From the IMG/VR virus record IMGVR_UViG_2534681662_000012: 6,205 bases of DNA. The stretch is one strand, 5' to 3'. Both the position numbers and the translations under genes were made by a program. Source of the DNA: a virus (Duplodnaviria; Heunggongvirae; Uroviricota; Caudoviricetes). The notes beneath the pieces are model-generated. The model did not search any database. It was given only the letters and a program-made list of their open reading frames with translations, and was not told where the DNA came from. Within the stretch, counting starts at the first letter, position 1. Each line of letters opens with the position of its first letter. This document shows positions 194-6,205 of this stretch, one piece after another.

Positions 194-811
194 TTACCCA
201 AGCACGCCAGTTGCAAAGGCGTGATCAAGAAAACGAAAAATTAAATCAACCTGAGAACCATGCATTTCTTCGAACGCCAGCGGATCCGCATGAAGCTCGT
301 TGTGATGCTCCCGACACAGCGGTAGCGTGAAAATATCGTGAGATTTTGTCCCCATTCCGCCCTGACCATGACCAATCAGGTGATGGGGATCGTCGGCTGG
401 CTTACCACAACACGCACACGGCTGTGTCTTCACCCAGCGTGTGTATTTCTCGTTAACCCAGCGGCGACGTTTAGGTCGTTTCATGAAAGATTCCGGAGAC
501 TCCGGATCTACGGCAATGCTGACCACCGTCTTTTCCTGTGGTGCGTTCTGTTGCTGGTGGACGTGAGGCAGCGGCGCAAGATTTTTTGTGCGCTGTTTCA
601 GTATGCTGGTGGCGGTCTGCTCTCCCGGTACGATGTCGCTTTCGCGGTACACCGAGCGGATTTTTTCCGCACGCAAGCCCAGCGAACGACGTAATACCGC
701 TTCCGGTAGCGCGTCCGCCACCTGATTGCGGACCGCCCACCAGGATAATTCAGCCAGAGATAATTCACGCTCCTGCGTACCGCTTATTGCGTGACCGATG
801 ACGTCAATCAT
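194..811 (-). CDS. Cys/His-rich lambdoid-prophage protein, DUF968/YdfU-like C-terminal region (205 aa from the internal ATG)
   Basis: Track ORF 194..1021, trimmed to the internal ATG at 811..809 (MIDVIGHAISGTQERELS...). The upstream 70 codons (MLLVVLGHCLTGCCAILNPASGHTAIII...) are Cys/Thr/Ala-rich, look non-protein-like, and overlap a better frame. The C-terminal block WVKTQPCACCGKPADDPHHLIGHGQGGMGTKSHDIFTLPLCREHHNELH is a Cys/His metal-binding-type motif that I associate with the DUF968 family; this is recollection, not a search result. Stop TAA at 196..194. Confidence 0.6.
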   Translation of the reverse strand: MIDVIGHAISGTQERELSLAELSWWAVRNQVADALPEAVLRRSLGLRAEKIRSVYRESDIVPGEQTATSILKQRTKNLAPLPHVHQQQNAPQEKTVVSIAVDPESPESFMKRPKRRRWVNEKYTRWVKTQPCACCGKPADDPHHLIGHGQGGMGTKSHDIFTLPLCREHHNELHADPLAFEEMHGSQVDLIFRFLDHAFATGVLG

Positions 812-1241
812 CCATGCTGACAGTTTTGATGAGCAAGTTGCCGAGTGATTCGGATGTCTGGTCACGCAGCTGGTTGTCGCAGTGCCAGCACAACACCATT
901 GCGCCGGTACCATATCGGTGAATAACGGTTTCGCTGTGATGATAATCGCCGTGTGGCCACTGGCAGGATTTAATATGGCACAACAGCCAGTCAGACAGTG
1001 CCCCAGCACCACCAGCAGCACGAATCACCCGCTCATCGCTGAAAAATGGCAGTAATGATTTATCCTCCGCCAGCGGCTGGCGAACAGCAGGAACGACTCC
1101 GGACGGCAGACCGCGCATGCTTTTCGGTTCCGGCTCCACCAGAACTCGAGGGTTATGAAATACCTGCATGGATTCACGGCCCGGTTTTAGCACCACCAGC
1201 CCAAGTTCCGGTACCGGAACAGGTCGAAGTAACACCCGCAC
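804..1241 (-). CDS. Hypothetical Cys/His-rich prophage protein (145 aa); possibly the N-terminal part of a split YdfU-like gene
   Basis: Track ORF 804..1241. Start is GTG at 1241..1239, preceded by GGAGG (tctGGAGGtaacGTG on the minus strand) that overlaps the TAA stop of the upstream ORF at 1245..1243. The product ends ...CQWPHGDYHHSETVIHRYGTGAMVLCWHCDNQLRDQTSESLGNLLIKTVSMDD. Its TGA stop (806..804) overlaps the ATG of the next ORF (811..809), giving minus-strand ATGATTGA. Confidence 0.55.
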   Translation of the reverse strand: MRVLLRPVPVPELGLVVLKPGRESMQVFHNPRVLVEPEPKSMRGLPSGVVPAVRQPLAEDKSLLPFFSDERVIRAAGGAGALSDWLLCHIKSCQWPHGDYHHSETVIHRYGTGAMVLCWHCDNQLRDQTSESLGNLLIKTVSMDD

Positions 1242-1590: not shown

Positions 1591-1620
1591 AGGAAAAAAC
1601 AAAACCCGCCGAAGCGGGTT
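1591..1620 (-). terminator. Rho-independent terminator downstream of hok
   Basis: Perfect 7-bp stem (1603-1609 aacccgc with 1614-1620 gcgggtt) and a 4-nt loop cgaa. On the minus strand the hairpin is followed by the U-rich tract UUUUGUUUUUUCC (complement of 1591-1602). It lies about 70 nt 3' of the hok stop. Confidence 0.6.
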
Positions 1621-1688
1621 ACGTGCGGGTGCGTTGAGGATGCCTGCCACATAAGAGGTGGCGAGGGATTTCTCCCTCGCCTGGTCTC

Positions 1689-1844
1689 TTACTCCTCAGG
1701 TTCGTAAGCTGTGAAGACAGCGACCTCCGTCTGGCCGGTTCGGATTCGTACCTCGCAGAGGTCTTTCCTCGTTACCAGTGCCGTCACTATGACGGTTAAA
1801 CAGATGACGATCAGGGCGATTAACATCGCCTTTTGCTGCTTCAT
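1689..1844 (-). CDS. hokD: Hok/Gef-family type I toxin, HokD/RelF-like (51 aa)
   Basis: The internal ATG (1844..1842) of track ORF 1689..1901 gives MKQQKAMLIALIVICLTVIVTALVTRKDLCEVRIRTGQTEVAVFTAYEPEE. I recognise this as the Hok family (single TM helix, then the conserved RKDLCEV.IRTGQTEVAVF block) and, from memory, as identical or near-identical to E. coli HokD (RelF). SD AAGGAG sits 9 nt upstream. The 19-codon in-frame N-terminal extension in the track ORF was not adopted. Confidence 0.85.
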   Translation of the reverse strand: MKQQKAMLIALIVICLTVIVTALVTRKDLCEVRIRTGQTEVAVFTAYEPEE

Positions 1845-2116
1845 AGCCTGCTTCTCCTTGCCTTTCGGCACGTAAGAGGCTAACCTACATGTGTCTAGCA
1901 TGAAATTGGCCTCAGATTAATGTTAAGCGTCTTGCAGGACGCGTAATGTTAACTGGGGCTTTTCTCTATCTGCCCTTGGTGTTCATGCCCGAGGCAGATA
2001 GCCTCAAGCACCCGCAGCCATTCTACTTAACTACCGTTACCTCGCCAATATGAAATCAGTCAGAAAGACGATCCATAAGAACAATAGCAAGATTTCTTAA
2101 TGGAGATGGATGTAAG

Positions 2117-3604
2117 CTAAATATTTTGGCTCGGTCTGCTTTCTATTAAATGCAACCTGTATTTTAAAGCATGATGTGTCCTAAACTCATTTTGTAGATT
2201 AATTTTTAAGTTAGGCAAACTACTTACGTATTCCCATCTACCTTGTTTTTTTTGTCCGATAAGTGAGTTATCAAACAGGAAGTTGATATATTGACGTATC
2301 ACCCCATCAGAAATACCTGCAAATTCATTACGGCACTTCTCGGAAAAATCATTAAAATCGAATGTTTCTACTTGGATAGTTTGAAGAACAGTTAGTAAGT
2401 TCTCAATTTCAGGGAATTGGTTGGACCATTCATCAATCACCTCATTGTACACACTTATAGATGCTTCACGGTCAGCTTCATAAAGCTCATTGGAAGTGTA
2501 AAGACCTGAGACATTATTTTTATGACATGCCCTAATTTTGTTGAAGTAGACAATAATATCCCTAGGCCTAAAGAAAGAACGGCGACATATATATTTAAAT
2601 GGAGGAGTCCCCTGCCTAACGAATGAAACCTCAAATACTTTCCCAGATCTGTCCTTTTCGTCATCTAATATGAGATCATTAGGTTTGTATTTCTTTATCC
2701 TCTCATAATACATATCGTTTAGATTATTTTCATTCCATGAGATTATGATAGCACTATCTTGCAATAATTTGTTTTTATCATTGAATTTCAAAGAATGATA
2801 AATATCCGTTCGTAGGAAGGGAATGACTTTTAATTTATCATTGAGGCGTTCATCAGATGCTATGTTTCTACAGACATTTAGCAGATTTATTAAAACCTTA
2901 CTATATTCTTCAATTTGCCCCTCTAGCCAGTTTTCGTCTAATTGGTCAAGGGCGATAATTATTTTTTCATTACCAATGTTATCTTTAAAAATTTTTTCAA
3001 AATACGTAAGCAACGTGAAAGCATTAGCTCTTAGCTTTTGCTTTAGCTGAGCATTCTCAGCAACTTCCTCTAACGAAATTTCACCTGCGTCCAATGATAC
3101 TTCATTAAGACCAGCACTGGGCCCTTTTATGGTTTTTAATCTGGTTATTTTTGAAAACAAAACCTCCCTAAGAGTTGGGTCGGGACTACCAAAGATAGTT
3201 TTGATATAATTATGTGCCCACGTTAGATCTTTGTTTAAAGTCTCTCCAGCATCATTTTTTATTTCAATAAGTTTAGATAATGCCTTAATATAAAAAAGAT
3301 ACATCCAACTTTTTTGATAAGCGGAAAGTTCTCCAGCCATTGCATCCTTGTAAAGTTGATGGGCTGGCCATGGATAGTCACTAAAATTTAGACATACTGA
3401 GTAAAACCCGTTGAGATTGGCTGGGTTTCCTCTTCTAAGGTGTTCATAAATGGCTGTTTTACCAGTACCTTTTCTTCCAAGAACCAACCAAGCCCTACTT
3501 TCAATAATATCCTTTATCGCCGGTAGCTTAAAAAAATAGGTCTGTAAGTCCCGATCTGTTTCTGCTGAAACTTGAAATTCTGGTAGCCAGTCTCTAATGT
3601 CCAC
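2117..3604 (-). CDS. P-loop NTPase, 495 aa, STAND/KAP-like motif pattern; AT-rich horizontally acquired gene; candidate phage-defence/abortive-infection protein
   Basis: Track ORF 2117..3604; an uninterrupted 495-codon frame in an otherwise AT-rich segment. Walker A WLVLGRKGTGKTAIYEHL near residue 40; Walker B-like IIALDQLDENW near residue 220 (hhhhD-x-hDE, as in STAND/NACHT-type NTPases; the roughly 175-aa A-to-B spacing is more like KAP-type). In-frame start is GTG at 3604..3602 with SD AAGAGGA about 4-5 nt upstream. G+C in hand-counted 60-bp lines is about 27-35%, against about 57% in a flanking backbone line. Confidence 0.85.
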   Translation of the reverse strand: MDIRDWLPEFQVSAETDRDLQTYFFKLPAIKDIIESRAWLVLGRKGTGKTAIYEHLRRGNPANLNGFYSVCLNFSDYPWPAHQLYKDAMAGELSAYQKSWMYLFYIKALSKLIEIKNDAGETLNKDLTWAHNYIKTIFGSPDPTLREVLFSKITRLKTIKGPSAGLNEVSLDAGEISLEEVAENAQLKQKLRANAFTLLTYFEKIFKDNIGNEKIIIALDQLDENWLEGQIEEYSKVLINLLNVCRNIASDERLNDKLKVIPFLRTDIYHSLKFNDKNKLLQDSAIIISWNENNLNDMYYERIKKYKPNDLILDDEKDRSGKVFEVSFVRQGTPPFKYICRRSFFRPRDIIVYFNKIRACHKNNVSGLYTSNELYEADREASISVYNEVIDEWSNQFPEIENLLTVLQTIQVETFDFNDFSEKCRNEFAGISDGVIRQYINFLFDNSLIGQKKQGRWEYVSSLPNLKINLQNEFRTHHALKYRLHLIESRPSQNI

Positions 3605-3921
3605 ATTTTCCTCTTTACATTACATTACCTTTATGTTTTTCCAAAATAAATCAAAGTCATATGGCGTATCAAGTTTTTTTGATTATTTATGAGCTCATAC
3701 TCAAAAAAATACTAAATCTAATTTATCTTACGTTAACTAAAGATTTCATATGTTAGTATGCTCAAGCAATGCTACTGCTGGAGTCTGATGATATCCGTTA
3801 TACACTAATTGCCACGCACACAAGCGACATCAGTTCATGGCACAAAGCAGACAACCACGCTACCTCTACCCTATGCCATGAAAATGTCAATTTACATCTT
3901 AACTAATGCACTTTAATCTCG

Positions 3922-4344
3922 TCACTTAAATAGATACCGAACATTTCCCTGATAAAACGACAATATGCGCTGCATAACTTCGCTCTTCTGGCACTCGCGA
4001 CAGATTATGTTTAGACGACTGTCGTAGCGACGTATTTCTCCATCAGGTAGTGACCAGATAAGGTCCGGATCAACCACAGCGGGTTTCTTCACCTTCGCCC
4101 TAGAGAGTTTTTTGCGGGCATTTTGCCAGTCCTTTCGTGCCTGTTCAGACGGGAATAACCCGTAGCCGGAGTTGTATACATAACCACTGGCAACCAGCTC
4201 TCTGGCAAGAATGCTCATCAGATATCTTGTCGCACCTGTTTTAGCTTCCAACTGTCGTAATGTCTCGCGACCGCTCTGGCGCACAAGTTCGACCACCTGC
4301 TCTTTAATTTTTTCCCGCTCTTCCTGTGTAAAAACTTTTGCCAC
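3922..4344 (-). CDS. Hypothetical prophage protein, 140 aa
   Basis: Track ORF 3922..4344. GTG start at 4344..4342 with a strong SD AAGGAGG 4 nt upstream (ttAAGGAGGacttGTG on the minus strand). Backbone-like G+C. The product (MAKVFTQEEREKIKEQVVELVRQSGRETLRQLEAKTGATRYLMSILARELVASGYV...) is basic and could contain an HTH, but I do not recognise a specific family. Confidence 0.65.
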   Translation of the reverse strand: MAKVFTQEEREKIKEQVVELVRQSGRETLRQLEAKTGATRYLMSILARELVASGYVYNSGYGLFPSEQARKDWQNARKKLSRAKVKKPAVVDPDLIWSLPDGEIRRYDSRLNIICRECQKSEVMQRILSFYQGNVRYLFK

Positions 4345-4384
4345 AAGTCCTCCTTAAAATTACCTCATGACCTGAAATCAACAC

Positions 4385-5350
4385 TTATCCCCTGAAACCA
4401 GGCGGAATTTCTGTATCCGGTTCAGAAATATGATTCACACAACGCTGTACAGGTGAACGTCCCAAGCGGATGACCAGTTCGTCCCATTTTTCGCGGAGTT
4501 TTGACGGGCTCATGATGTTTTTTACCCAGAATGGATCTCGCTGTACCCGACCAAACATTTCGCAAATTTGTCTGTGGCTTCTGCCATCCAGCATCCGCAT
4601 TGTGCGCACGTCATTGGCCCAGGCTGTCCAGTTAGGCTCTTTTGGTCGCATGATCTCTCCATCGTCGCTGGCAGCCTGTTCGTAAAGGTTCACGATCCGC
4701 CCCCAAATCCACTGCGCACACGCCAAATCCTCCCTGCTACCCCACTGGCGTTTTTTCGCACTAAACACAACCGCGTCGGGGTTCTGGGTTAAAAAATCCT
4801 GTTCAGCGGTCTGCGGGTCCGGTTGCGAAGCTTCCGGACGAAAAGTGTTTTTATTCTCTGTAGTAATCTCTGTTGTATTCTCTGTAAGATCATCAGGCCA
4901 TTTTGACCCGATGACATTGGGTCGTTTTGAACCAATGGAGCGTTTCATTTTGACCTCTTCCATCGTGTCATTTTGACCTGATGGAGCGGCGCATTTTGAA
5001 CCGATGGATTCGTTCAATTTGCCACCATCTAAAAGCTCGCTCCCATAGTTGATCGTGTAGAAATTGGTCATATCGCGCTTTGATTTATTGAGCTTTTCAC
5101 AACGCAAAAGCCCCAGCGTTTTCAGACTTGCAAACGCGCGCTTTAAAGTTGACTCTGACCAGAATGGGAACTGTTCCAGCCATTGTTCCGTTGTGTTGTA
5201 AATCCAGCGAACACCATCACATTCCATGCCGGAATTGGTATCTCTCAACCAGTAATGCAACTGCTGCAACACAATGGCTTCATTTAAGCCAATCTTCATC
5301 GCAAGCTGTGTGTTTATAACCAGTGGGCGTTCAGCAAAAAGAAGGCTCAT
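4385..5350 (-). CDS. Phage replication initiator (lambda O-like / replisome organiser) with an internal origin
   Basis: Track ORF 4385..5404. The track start at 5404 is TTG with no SD, so I prefer ATG at 5350..5348 (weak GGATGG SD), which overlaps the upstream ORF stop by about 20 nt; the start remains uncertain. The N-terminal region looks like a winged-helix DNA-binding domain; the middle is encoded by iteron repeats (repeated SIGSK / VIGSK peptide); the C-terminal domain is Trp-rich. An internal ori is the hallmark of O-type initiators. Confidence 0.7.
   Translation of the reverse strand: MSLLFAERPLVINTQLAMKIGLNEAIVLQQLHYWLRDTNSGMECDGVRWIYNTTEQWLEQFPFWSESTLKRAFASLKTLGLLRCEKLNKSKRDMTNFYTINYGSELLDGGKLNESIGSKCAAPSGQNDTMEEVKMKRSIGSKRPNVIGSKWPDDLTENTTEITTENKNTFRPEASQPDPQTAEQDFLTQNPDAVVFSAKKRQWGSREDLACAQWIWGRIVNLYEQAASDDGEIMRPKEPNWTAWANDVRTMRMLDGRSHRQICEMFGRVQRDPFWVKNIMSPSKLREKWDELVIRLGRSPVQRCVNHISEPDTEIPPGFRG
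4898..5012. repeat. Iteron array (putative prophage origin of replication) inside the initiator gene, with an adjacent A+T-rich short-repeat tract at 4841-4890
   Basis: Five direct repeats of about 18-20 bp with 23-24 bp periodicity. Plus-strand copies start near 4900 (attttgacccgatga), 4924 (gttttgaaccaatgga), 4948 (cattttgacctcttccatcg, degenerate), 4968 (cattttgacctgatggagcg) and 4992 (cattttgaaccgatggattcg); consensus CATTTTGA(C/A)C.GATGGA. Immediately downstream in gene orientation is the tract 4851-4888 with three copies of tctctgt(a/t) (ttattctctgtag, taatctctgtt, tattctctgtaag). Confidence 0.6.
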
Positions 5351-5852
5351 AATTCCATCCAGCTTTTTGTTGGTATTGCTGTCGATACGCAAGTTTGAAA
5401 GCAATTGCTTTTTCTATAAGTTCGTCAGTTTCACGATCCACTACGGCAGGATCAGCAAAAAGCAGTCCGGACTCCACCACATCGCCATATTCTTTGTTTA
5501 ACCCGGCGATCATGTACGTGATGCTTTTTCCGTCACTAATTTCACGATACAACCTGAAATCATTAATCCGGATAGCCTCCATAATTGCAGGCACTAGCGC
5601 CGTGAACTTTTCACGCTTATCCCTAGTGTCGATAGCCTTCCAGCGTTCGAATATCTTCACTCGATTAACGCCAAGCGCTCGCTGATCAACCGCGCCACCT
5701 TCATCTGTGACACGCTGAACATCGATGTTCGGGCGCTCTTTCAAAGCCCAGAATGCTTCAGTGATTAATATCGTCGCCTGCTCCTGTGTCATTCCTGGTC
5801 GACATATCCAGGCATCCAGAGCCTCACGAGCCTGTTCAGGAGTGATTTTCAT
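5331..5852 (-). CDS. Hypothetical prophage early-region protein, 173 aa
   Basis: Track ORF 5331..5852 with ATG start at 5852..5850 and backbone G+C. The product (MKITPEQAREALDAWICRPGMTQEQATILITEAFWALKERPNIDVQRV...) is not recognised by me. Its start lies 37 bp from the IS1 left end. Confidence 0.65.
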   Translation of the reverse strand: MKITPEQAREALDAWICRPGMTQEQATILITEAFWALKERPNIDVQRVTDEGGAVDQRALGVNRVKIFERWKAIDTRDKREKFTALVPAIMEAIRINDFRLYREISDGKSITYMIAGLNKEYGDVVESGLLFADPAVVDRETDELIEKAIAFKLAYRQQYQQKAGWNYEPSFC

Positions 5853-5889
5853 TGTTCAACCGCCCCGCCCGCTTCGTCTTACGATATTC

Positions 5890-5912
5890 GGTGATGCTGC
5901 CAACTTACTGAT
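5890..5912 (+). repeat. IS1 left terminal inverted repeat (about 23 bp)
   Basis: GGTGATGCTGCCAACTTACTGAT at 5890-5912 matches the IS1 terminal inverted repeat as I recall it. The other end and the target-site duplication lie outside the window. Confidence 0.85.
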
Positions 5913-5944
5913 TTAGTGTATGATGGTGTTTTTGAGGTGCTCCA

Positions 5945-6205
5945 GTGGCTTCTGTTTCTATCAGCTGTCCCTCCTGTTCAGCTACTGACGGGGTGGTGCG
6001 TAACGGCAAAAGCACTGCCGGACATCAGCGCTATCTCTGCTCTCACTGCCGTAAAACATGGCAACTGCAGTTCACTTACACCGCTTCTCAACCCGGTACG
6101 CACCAGAAAATCATTGATATGGCCATGAATGGCGTTGGATGCCGGGCAACAGCCCGCATTATGGGCGTTGGCCTCAACACGATTTTACGTCACTTAAAAA
6201 ACTCA
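5945..6205 (+). CDS. insA: IS1 InsA (N-terminal 87 codons; truncated by the window end)
   Basis: Hand translation from GTG at 5945 gives [87 protein letters not shown] with no stop before 6205, matching IS1 InsA (zinc-finger plus HTH). Not in the ORF track, which shows a different-frame ORF at 5916..6128. Confidence 0.9.

Follow-up and report, generated by a model that had tools for sequence, protein, structure and literature searches.

An Sll1717-family P-loop ATPase gene as solo cargo of a Qin-like prophage: a credible, uncharacterized candidate for single-gene anti-phage defense

A single ATPase gene occupies a low-G+C insert between DUF977 and hok

We analyzed a 6,205-nucleotide stretch of DNA (the window) from the IMG/VR virus record IMGVR_UViG_2534681662_000012 (Caudoviricetes), focusing on a gene that encodes a P-loop ATPase of 495 amino acids. 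The window matches a Qin/Kim-type cryptic lambdoid prophage of Escherichia coli, which carries dicB, ydfA-D, and hokD, at 99.8% identity. On the minus strand, genes for a YdaT/CII-like protein, an O-like replication protein, and a DUF977/Ren-like protein are followed by the ATPase gene, by hok with the Rfam element sok, and by a DUF968/HNH gene. The ATPase gene therefore lies between the replication module and hok, as a preliminary description made from the letters alone had proposed. The features required for the following analysis are:

3922..4344, minus strand: DUF977/Ren-like gene, upstream backbone at the left edge of the replication module (PF06163, E 2e-28; phrog_142)
2093..3837, no strand assigned: low-G+C cargo insert, comprising the ATPase gene, 233 nt upstream, and 24 nt downstream (break in backbone homology, dip in G+C)
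3605..3746, minus strand: upstream leader/promoter region, common to the closest (Proteus) copies (nucleotide homology to the comparison loci L020 and L021, reaching 3746)
2117..3604, minus strand: ATPase coding sequence, Sll1717-family P-loop (AAA+, ORC/Cdc6-STAND-like; open reading frame, NF047389 at 250.8 bits, PHROG 13260, PGAP)
1689..2013, minus strand: hokD toxin gene and Rfam “sok” RNA element, downstream backbone (PF01848, E 3e-23; RF01794, 116.6 bits at 1839–2013)

The ATPase open reading frame (ORF), taken from the ORF list of the window, starts with a GTG codon that is preceded at a distance of 5 nt by a GAGG Shine-Dalgarno sequence (3613–3610), in agreement with the earlier reading of this start. 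The start is further supported by an alignment, in which the N-terminus MDI[RK][DE]W... lines up with the starts of homologues, and PGAP calls the identical 1488-nt coding sequence (CDS) in other strains. At 35% G+C, the chance of an open frame of 495 codons is ~1e-16.

The sharp contrast in base composition that had drawn attention to this locus could be confirmed: the ATPase gene has a G+C content of 35.1% and its flanks of 50.9%. Homology to the backbone of related Qin-like prophages with other cargo (L010–L014) ends at ~2092 and restarts at ~3838, and these two breakpoints define a cargo insert of 1.7 kb with the ATPase as its sole gene. In other strains, the same DUF977-hok interval harbors a DUF4209 protein with IS2, an α/β-hydrolase, small hypothetical genes, or methyltransferase remnants, which shows the slot to be variable and bears out the earlier view of a place for lambdoid cargo. 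A σ70-like sequence (TTGATA-18-TATTTT) is located at 3672–3643 upstream of the ATPase gene, which is no more than expected by chance. Promoter and terminator scans around the gene revealed nothing above chance, and a repeat search of the same region returned only weak pairs and no iterons.

At the right edge of the insert, just downstream of the DUF977 stop codon, we observed an imperfect inverted repeat (3834–3882) with 18-nt arms that are 78% complementary and separated by a 13-nt spacer. A terminator function is conceivable, as is a scar left by recombination.

The ATPase belongs to a large catalogued family

The protein had initially been regarded as an orphan, a view that had to be abandoned. 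It is a full-length member of the NCBIfam family NF047389 (“P-loop ATPase, Sll1717 family”), scoring 250.8 bits (E 2.9e-74, cutoff 75) from end to end, with residues 13–484 aligned to positions 5–454 of the 454-position profile, and it is also matched by PHROG 13260 (E 5e-34). The identical E. coli protein WP_000354584.1 is already named Sll1717 family by PGAP. An exhaustive search (E ≤ 1e-3) placed 1,370 clusters at 50% identity in the wider family, most of them with a length of 470–520 amino acids. Both NF047389 and PHROG 13260 are catalogued families whose names carry no function. The label “FunZ” given to some members stands only for “function unknown gene Z”; a meningococcal gene of this name, which may or may not be homologous to the Sll1717 family, is listed as phase-variable and as an alternative cargo of a variable island.

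A Pfam search with the ATPase retrieved no family model. The match to AAA_16 is below threshold (E 0.027, 15.4 bits, cutoff 32.6), and a methyltransferase match was rejected as spurious. AAA_21 and AAA_15 are absent from the Pfam matches, in line with the initial impression that no relationship to ABC-type ATPases exists. A confident match to a terminase, helicase-loader, or partition-ATPase family, which would have spoken against a role in defense, was looked for and not found. Sequence and profile searches of the PDB with the ATPase yielded P-loop matches only, and the NACHT, NB-ARC, nSTAND, and Avs profiles do not match it above threshold. Among 98 relatives at 20–55% identity, which also served to score residue conservation, NACHT and nSTAND3 account for one match each, all below threshold.

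Conserved motifs and the predicted fold point to an ORC/Cdc6-STAND-type AAA+ ATPase

A confident model of the ATPase was generated by AlphaFold2 from a 55-sequence alignment (predicted local distance difference test, pLDDT, 81.5; predicted template modeling score, pTM, 0.81). Its core is of the AAA+ type, with 130 residues of helical insert separating strand 2 from strand 3, and is followed by a helical lid and by a winged-helix-like domain at the C-terminus. The motifs and domains are located as follows:

3455..3478, minus strand: Walker A/P-loop GRKGTGKT, residues 43–50, after strand 40–43 of the model
2978..3370, minus strand: helical insert after strand 2, residues 79–209 (secondary structure of the model; low confidence in part, 155–177)
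2933..2959, minus strand: Walker B IIALDQLDE, residues 216–224, with IIALD on strand 214–220
2804..2815, minus strand: LRTD motif, residues 264–267, at the tip of strand 4 (258–265)
2558..2575, minus strand: lid motif F-F/G-R-P-R-D, residues 344–349 (GxP-like/sensor-2 arginines), within the helical lid 335–359
2165..2407, minus strand: C-terminal winged-helix-like domain, residues ~400–480, three helices and a β-hairpin (pLDDT ~90–95)

The Walker A and Walker B motifs recognized at the outset are strongly supported by their conservation. In the 98 relatives, G43, K45, G46, G48, and K49 of Walker A and D220 of Walker B are invariant, and D223 is nearly so. The same holds for the LRTD motif (R265 invariant, D267 nearly invariant) and for the lid, where P347 and R348 never vary and R346 and D349 hardly do. 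G450 and H477 of the C-terminal domain are nearly invariant. W100 within the helical insert is also invariant and belongs to block 91–100, the most constrained part of the protein in the close clade, where conservation is high over the whole length. R265 is presumably a sensor-1 arginine as found in STAND NTPases, an assignment based on AAA+ topology and not on a nucleotide-bound structure. The motifs for ATP binding and hydrolysis, this sensor-1 arginine, the lid arginines, and the winged helix are all intact in the ATPase.

The unusually long distance of ~170 residues between Walker A and Walker B, a further point of the preliminary description, is due to the helical insert, which judging from the model is likely a module for sensing a ligand or nucleic acids. 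With Walker A and Walker B on adjacent strands of the core sheet, the protein has the hallmarks of an AAA+/ASCE P-loop NTPase, and the combination of AAA+ core, insert after strand 2, lid, and C-terminal winged helix is that of the ORC/Cdc6 clade. The arginine at the tip of strand 4 (R265, placed by topology) is a feature of STAND NTPases. The [G/F]-R-P sequence of the lid, with P347 and R348 invariant, and the nearly invariant H477 in the C-terminal domain may or may not be counterparts of the GxP-type motif and the nucleotide-contacting histidine of STAND NTPases. The original classification as a STAND-type P-loop NTPase can be retained as STAND/ORC-like on the grounds of the model and its structure matches. 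These matches, to ORC/Cdc6 and SSO1545, cover both the AAA+ and the winged-helix regions. No viral structure in BFVD matched the model at E < 1e-3. Taken together, the model suggests an ORC/Cdc6-STAND-type AAA+ ATPase. An effector domain, a repeat sensor (TPR, WD40, or LRR), or a membrane segment was found neither by Pfam nor in the model.

This fold is difficult to reconcile with an abortive-infection NTPase of the KAP family, for which PifA had been named as the analogue. The analogy was one of resemblance and not the result of a tool, prompted by a P-loop NTPase that stands alone in a slot of a prophage. It is contradicted by the missing KAP_NTPase match in Pfam at E ≤ 1, by the missing match to the PADLOC Pif models, by the ORC/Cdc6-type and archaeal-type AAA+ fold with lid and winged helix, and by the modeled insert, which is soluble and helical and not membrane-spanning. 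We consider a KAP/PifA-like protein hardly conceivable.

The archaeal-type AAA+ proteins SSO1545 (2fna) and PAB2304 (2qen) of the PF01637 class share 11–15% identity with the ATPase, which itself has no PF01637 match. Their insert between strands 2 and 3 is much smaller, and they have no assigned function themselves. The distance to the ORC/Cdc6 initiators is also considerable at the sequence level: TIGR02928 scores 11 bits (E 0.11), far below its cutoff of 181, and Pfam gives no ORC-CDC6-like match, which does not place the ATPase among them. Moreover, the ATPase lacks origin-like DNA and, outside the window, linkage to replication genes, and its sensor-1 arginine is STAND-like.

Replication initiators and DNA-bound AAA+ assemblies are nevertheless the best structural matches of the model, and in the window the ATPase gene is located just downstream of the prophage replication genes. 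Both observations would agree with a protein that serves the DNA transactions of its own mobile element, be it as an ORC/Cdc6-like initiator or as a loader, partition, or regulatory ATPase. We regard such a role as very unlikely. No conserved flanking DNA that could be used as an origin or site moves with the gene, iterons are missing, and hidden Markov models for Orc1/Cdc6 and DnaA-type proteins give no match. Homologues are found at tail-module junctions, prophage ends, in a pur operon, and in defense islands. Finally, the ATPase is missing from the majority of Qin-like prophages that share these replication genes: among 5,426 complete E. coli genomes, DUF977 is present in 3,244 and the ATPase in 43 (0.8%), all copies being at least 99% identical and chromosomal.

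The ATPase gene is distributed as a solo, mobile unit

Proteins with 63–71% identity to the ATPase were found in Vibrio, Methylococcaceae, Nitrosomonas, Arcobacteraceae, Sulfuricurvum, Shewanella, Tenacibaculum, and Bdellovibrionaceae. Between hosts, nucleotide homology is limited to the CDS, and only the Proteus copies add 143 nt upstream. The G+C content of the gene is 27–35% in every host, even in those with 54–56%. A comparison with the Proteus copy gave a ratio of nonsynonymous to synonymous substitution rates (dN/dS) of ~0.07; in most homologue pairs (63–89% amino-acid identity) synonymous sites are saturated. Purifying selection on the ATPase is, to judge from these sequence comparisons, strong.

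The neighborhoods of representative homologues are:

Serratia, 81% identity: P2-like prophage, between gpA and Ogr/portal
Klebsiella, 89% identity: P2-like prophage, between gpU and a tail-fiber gene
Proteus, 89% identity: end of a lambdoid prophage, just beyond the integrase
V. cholerae: adjoins the end of a filamentous prophage with Rep_trans and Zot, in the rtxA–matP interval
Arcobacteraceae: adjoins AbiTii and an integrative element
Tenacibaculum: among GmrSD, a reverse transcriptase, methyltransferases, and a PIF1 helicase
Niallia, distant member: adjoins Thoeris and restriction-modification genes
Enterobacter: adjoins TacAT
Lactococcus phage CAP, 24% identity: after the lysin gene
S. pneumoniae, distant member: solo within the pur operon
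Methylococcaceae: solo islet

In the sampled contexts, relatives are thus concentrated in prophage cargo slots and defense islands, as a survey of neighborhoods had been expected to show for a defense gene. The interval between gpA and portal in P2-like prophages is the old/tin locus, described in PMC9122126 as an experimentally shown anti-phage hotspot; the Sll1717-family ATPase is not among the systems named in the searched passages of the article. No neighboring gene is conserved across the 13 contexts sampled. In addition, 49 viral contigs of IMG/VR contain relatives, many of them ~0–2.5 kb from the contig end, where integrases, repressors of the CI type, and genes for lysis or tails predominate among the closest neighbors of the relatives, and 65 plasmids carry distant relatives. 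By its distribution and sequence, the ATPase gene appears as a solo, horizontally mobile cargo unit.

Cargo slots also house virulence, metabolic, and anti-defense genes. The ATPase could accordingly be another kind of conversion or selfish gene, such as a stress-tolerance gene, an addiction-like toxic ATPase, or an anti-defense factor that shields the prophage, that merely shares its slots with defense genes. It is rare in E. coli (0.8% of the genomes), and copies inactivated by IS3 disruption or shortening in 4 of the 43 carriers suggest that it is dispensable or costly. In contrast, the fold and the fusion partners described below tie the family to NTPase conflict systems, copies adjoin Thoeris, GmrSD, and AbiTii and occupy the P2 old/tin locus, and the strong purifying selection argues against decaying junk. 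A conversion function outside defense therefore seems quite unlikely to us. The inactivated copies are of two types. In two Shiga toxin-producing E. coli strains (NZ_CP041433.1 and NZ_CP041429.1), an IS3-family insertion splits the gene, and in NZ_CP069710.1 and NZ_CM142774.1 only 38–47% of it is left.

Some of the homologous loci show additional features. The S. pneumoniae member (L022, 8001–9515), from a cluster that counts 155 sequences, is inserted alone into the purine biosynthesis operon, with purH on one side and purD on the other. In Tenacibaculum finnmarkense (L015 and L016, 11646–12770), a 374-aa leucine-rich-repeat protein is encoded directly downstream of the homologue in two otherwise different neighborhoods; it may act as a partner in this clade only, or travel along as cargo. 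In V. cholerae, a 97-aa ORF without Pfam match lies ahead of the homologue (L002, 9573–9866; L004, 270–563). It was rejected as a conserved upstream partner, since it is missing in other hosts and the homology between hosts ends at the CDS. A distant clade with ~23% identity is found on metagenomic prophage contigs of IMG/VR (L041–L047, L052, L054, and L055). In every one of these contigs, a co-oriented ORF of 415–428 aa starts ~170 nt past the homologue, near the contig end, and may correspond to the integrase matches of a bulk PHROG scan.

The family is linked to conflict systems and matches no experimentally defined defense family

Longer distant members bear extra domains, either a C-terminal GT4-conflict glycosyltransferase, an N-terminal EAD7 domain, or an N-terminal cold-shock domain. 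EAD7-type domains are described to recruit effectors by homotypic interaction (PMC7159879). In a PADLOC search, 69 of the 98 distant members matched the candidate PDC-M28C (best E 7e-15) and eight matched mad8. In the ATPase itself, the alignment with PDC-M28C covers the part from Walker B to sensor 1, and the A and B partner genes of PDC-M28 are absent from the 1.7-kb insert, which does not qualify it as a PDC-M28 system. The PADLOC models Pif, GajA, AriA, and Old do not match it. From this search, which included the distant members, the ATPase is placed outside the experimentally defined defense families, as had been supposed. A published survey of E. coli defense islands does not mention it. 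In summary, the family is known to NCBI and PHROGs, and defense databases hold just a distant relative that is itself a mere candidate.

The EAD7 adaptors, which recruit separate effectors, and the GT4-conflict fusion of distant members raise the question of whether the ATPase is a mere sensor or switch subunit that upon activation recruits an effector encoded elsewhere, for example a host nuclease or protease or the product of another prophage gene. Such an arrangement would also agree with the lack of a recognizable effector domain and with the closest PADLOC relative, PDC-M28C, being part of a multi-gene candidate. However, no neighbor is kept in the sampled contexts, the transferred unit is the CDS alone, and the clade of the ATPase has no EAD-type adaptor. 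Because proteins of 63–71% identity occur in Bacteroidota, Campylobacterota, and Gammaproteobacteria, any partner acting in trans would need to be universal. We therefore judge this explanation unlikely.

The ATPase was also compared with known systems. Antiviral STAND NTPases (Avs3, Avs5/SIR2-STAND, bacterial NACHT proteins, plant NLRs) have a length of 800–2,000 aa and a tripartite architecture. In contrast, the ATPase comprises 495 aa and lacks both the N-terminal effector and the C-terminal TPR/LRR/WD40 sensor. PDC-M28C, with a profile of ~480 positions, is of similar length and differs in belonging to a multi-gene candidate. BREX (BrxC/BrxD) and RADAR (RdrA) are multi-gene systems with a methyltransferase and PglZ or with a deaminase, whereas the ATPase is solo and has no match to their PADLOC models. 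The ABC-type/OLD-Gabija-PARIS ATPases are represented by AAA_15, AAA_21, GajA, AriA, and Old, none of which matches. Although the copy with 81% identity occupies the gpA-portal hotspot of Serratia P2-like prophages, neither P2 Old (ATPase-TOPRIM) nor Tin has any kinship to the ATPase in sequence or fold. As a defense candidate, it would be minimal, effector-less, and unusually conserved across phyla.

A possible role of the ATPase in anti-phage defense

Based on these observations, we consider it moderately probable that the gene is self-contained mobile prophage cargo and that its product, an ORC/Cdc6-STAND-type ATPase of the Sll1717 family, protects the lysogen, and with it the prophage, against other phages or mobile elements. 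It is a credible, so far uncharacterized single-gene anti-phage candidate, for which both phenotype and mechanism are inferred.

By analogy to its fold relatives, we propose the following mode of action. The resting ATPase would be a nucleotide-locked monomer, which recognizes a signal of infection via the helical insert, the winged helix, or both. The most plausible trigger would be some structure of nucleic acids, or else a conserved factor of replication or packaging. Its recognition would lead to an ATP-dependent oligomerization, and the oligomer itself would act as the effector by binding or sequestering its target, thereby blocking replication or packaging of phage DNA in a way similar to DNA-bound ORC/Cdc6, TnsC, or MuB. 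Given how highly the ATPase is conserved from phylum to phylum, a universal target seems more likely than a phage protein that evolves rapidly.

Several points weigh against protection of the lysogen as the function. Nucleic-acid binding and oligomerization are deduced from fold relatives only. Such uniform conservation across phyla is unusual for immune sensors, and for STAND-like proteins without an effector we know of no established mechanism of killing or blocking. With 20.6 bits, the match to PDC-M28C is a weak one and covers only part of the protein (residues 212–304 on positions 169–256 of the 480-position profile). Known defense genes are few among the immediate neighbors on the IMG/VR contigs in a bulk PADLOC scan, so that the evidence from prophages rests on position and not on adjacency to known systems. 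Moreover, no defense genes are near the S. pneumoniae pur operon copy and the Methylococcaceae islet, and a literature search for Sll1717, WP_000354584, PDC-M28, and FunZ returned no functional account of any member.

A more far-reaching idea, which is speculative and of low probability, is that the Sll1717 family represents a new class of one-gene immunity, in which a minimal, effector-less ORC/Cdc6-STAND ATPase forms an ATP-driven oligomer that is itself the weapon. The oligomer would assemble on a feature universal to invading DNA, or on a conserved factor of replication or packaging, and block it. This would explain how one and the same protein can work without alteration from Bacteroidota to Enterobacteria and be shuttled among P2-like, lambdoid, filamentous, and lactococcal prophages.

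If protection against phages holds true, a widespread defense family would be added that current detection tools mostly miss; its ~1,370 clusters extend over many phyla, where members reside in prophages, on plasmids, and in islands. A bare module of NTPase, lid, and winged helix, the core common to ORC/Cdc6 and NLR-type receptors, would then suffice for defense, with neither an effector nor a repeat sensor fused to it, and the 495-aa ATPase would be a small and tractable model of how such switches sense and act. Likewise, it would be worthwhile to mine the DUF977-hok slot of Qin-like prophages for cargo, as has been done with the hotspots of P2 and P4.

Other features of the slot and the host prophage

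In the slot of E. coli DEC9B (L010, 2505–4292), a 595-aa DUF4209 protein adjoins IS2, and in that of O157:H7 NE1127 (L014) the α/β-hydrolase gene lies on the opposite strand. Both proteins are uncharacterized candidates themselves. The hokD module of the window, which begins ~100 nt beyond the stop codon of the ATPase gene, on its downstream side, is complete, with the Hok/gef ORF and the sok match on the same strand and sok overlapping the 5′ region of hok.

The DUF968/HNH-type gene (194–1241, minus strand) is broken into two overlapping ORFs (804–1241 and 194–1021). Two single-base deletions, at ~823 and ~841, set it apart from the gene of strain 504838, whose 349-aa copy is intact; it is either a frameshifted pseudogene or the product of a sequencing error. 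A segment of ~420 bp carrying rem in strain 504838 (L001, 13273–13694) is missing from the window at 1539–1594. Identity to this strain is 93.8% over positions 1–1538 and 99.8% over 1595–5890, a step that suggests a recombination mosaic at ~1540–1595. At the other end, positions 5889–6205 are 98.4% identical to IS1 (IS1B in L001). The homology to the prophage backbone ends at 5890, within the place that the Cro/CI-type gene takes upstream of ydaT, so that IS1 appears to have interrupted this regulator in the strain.

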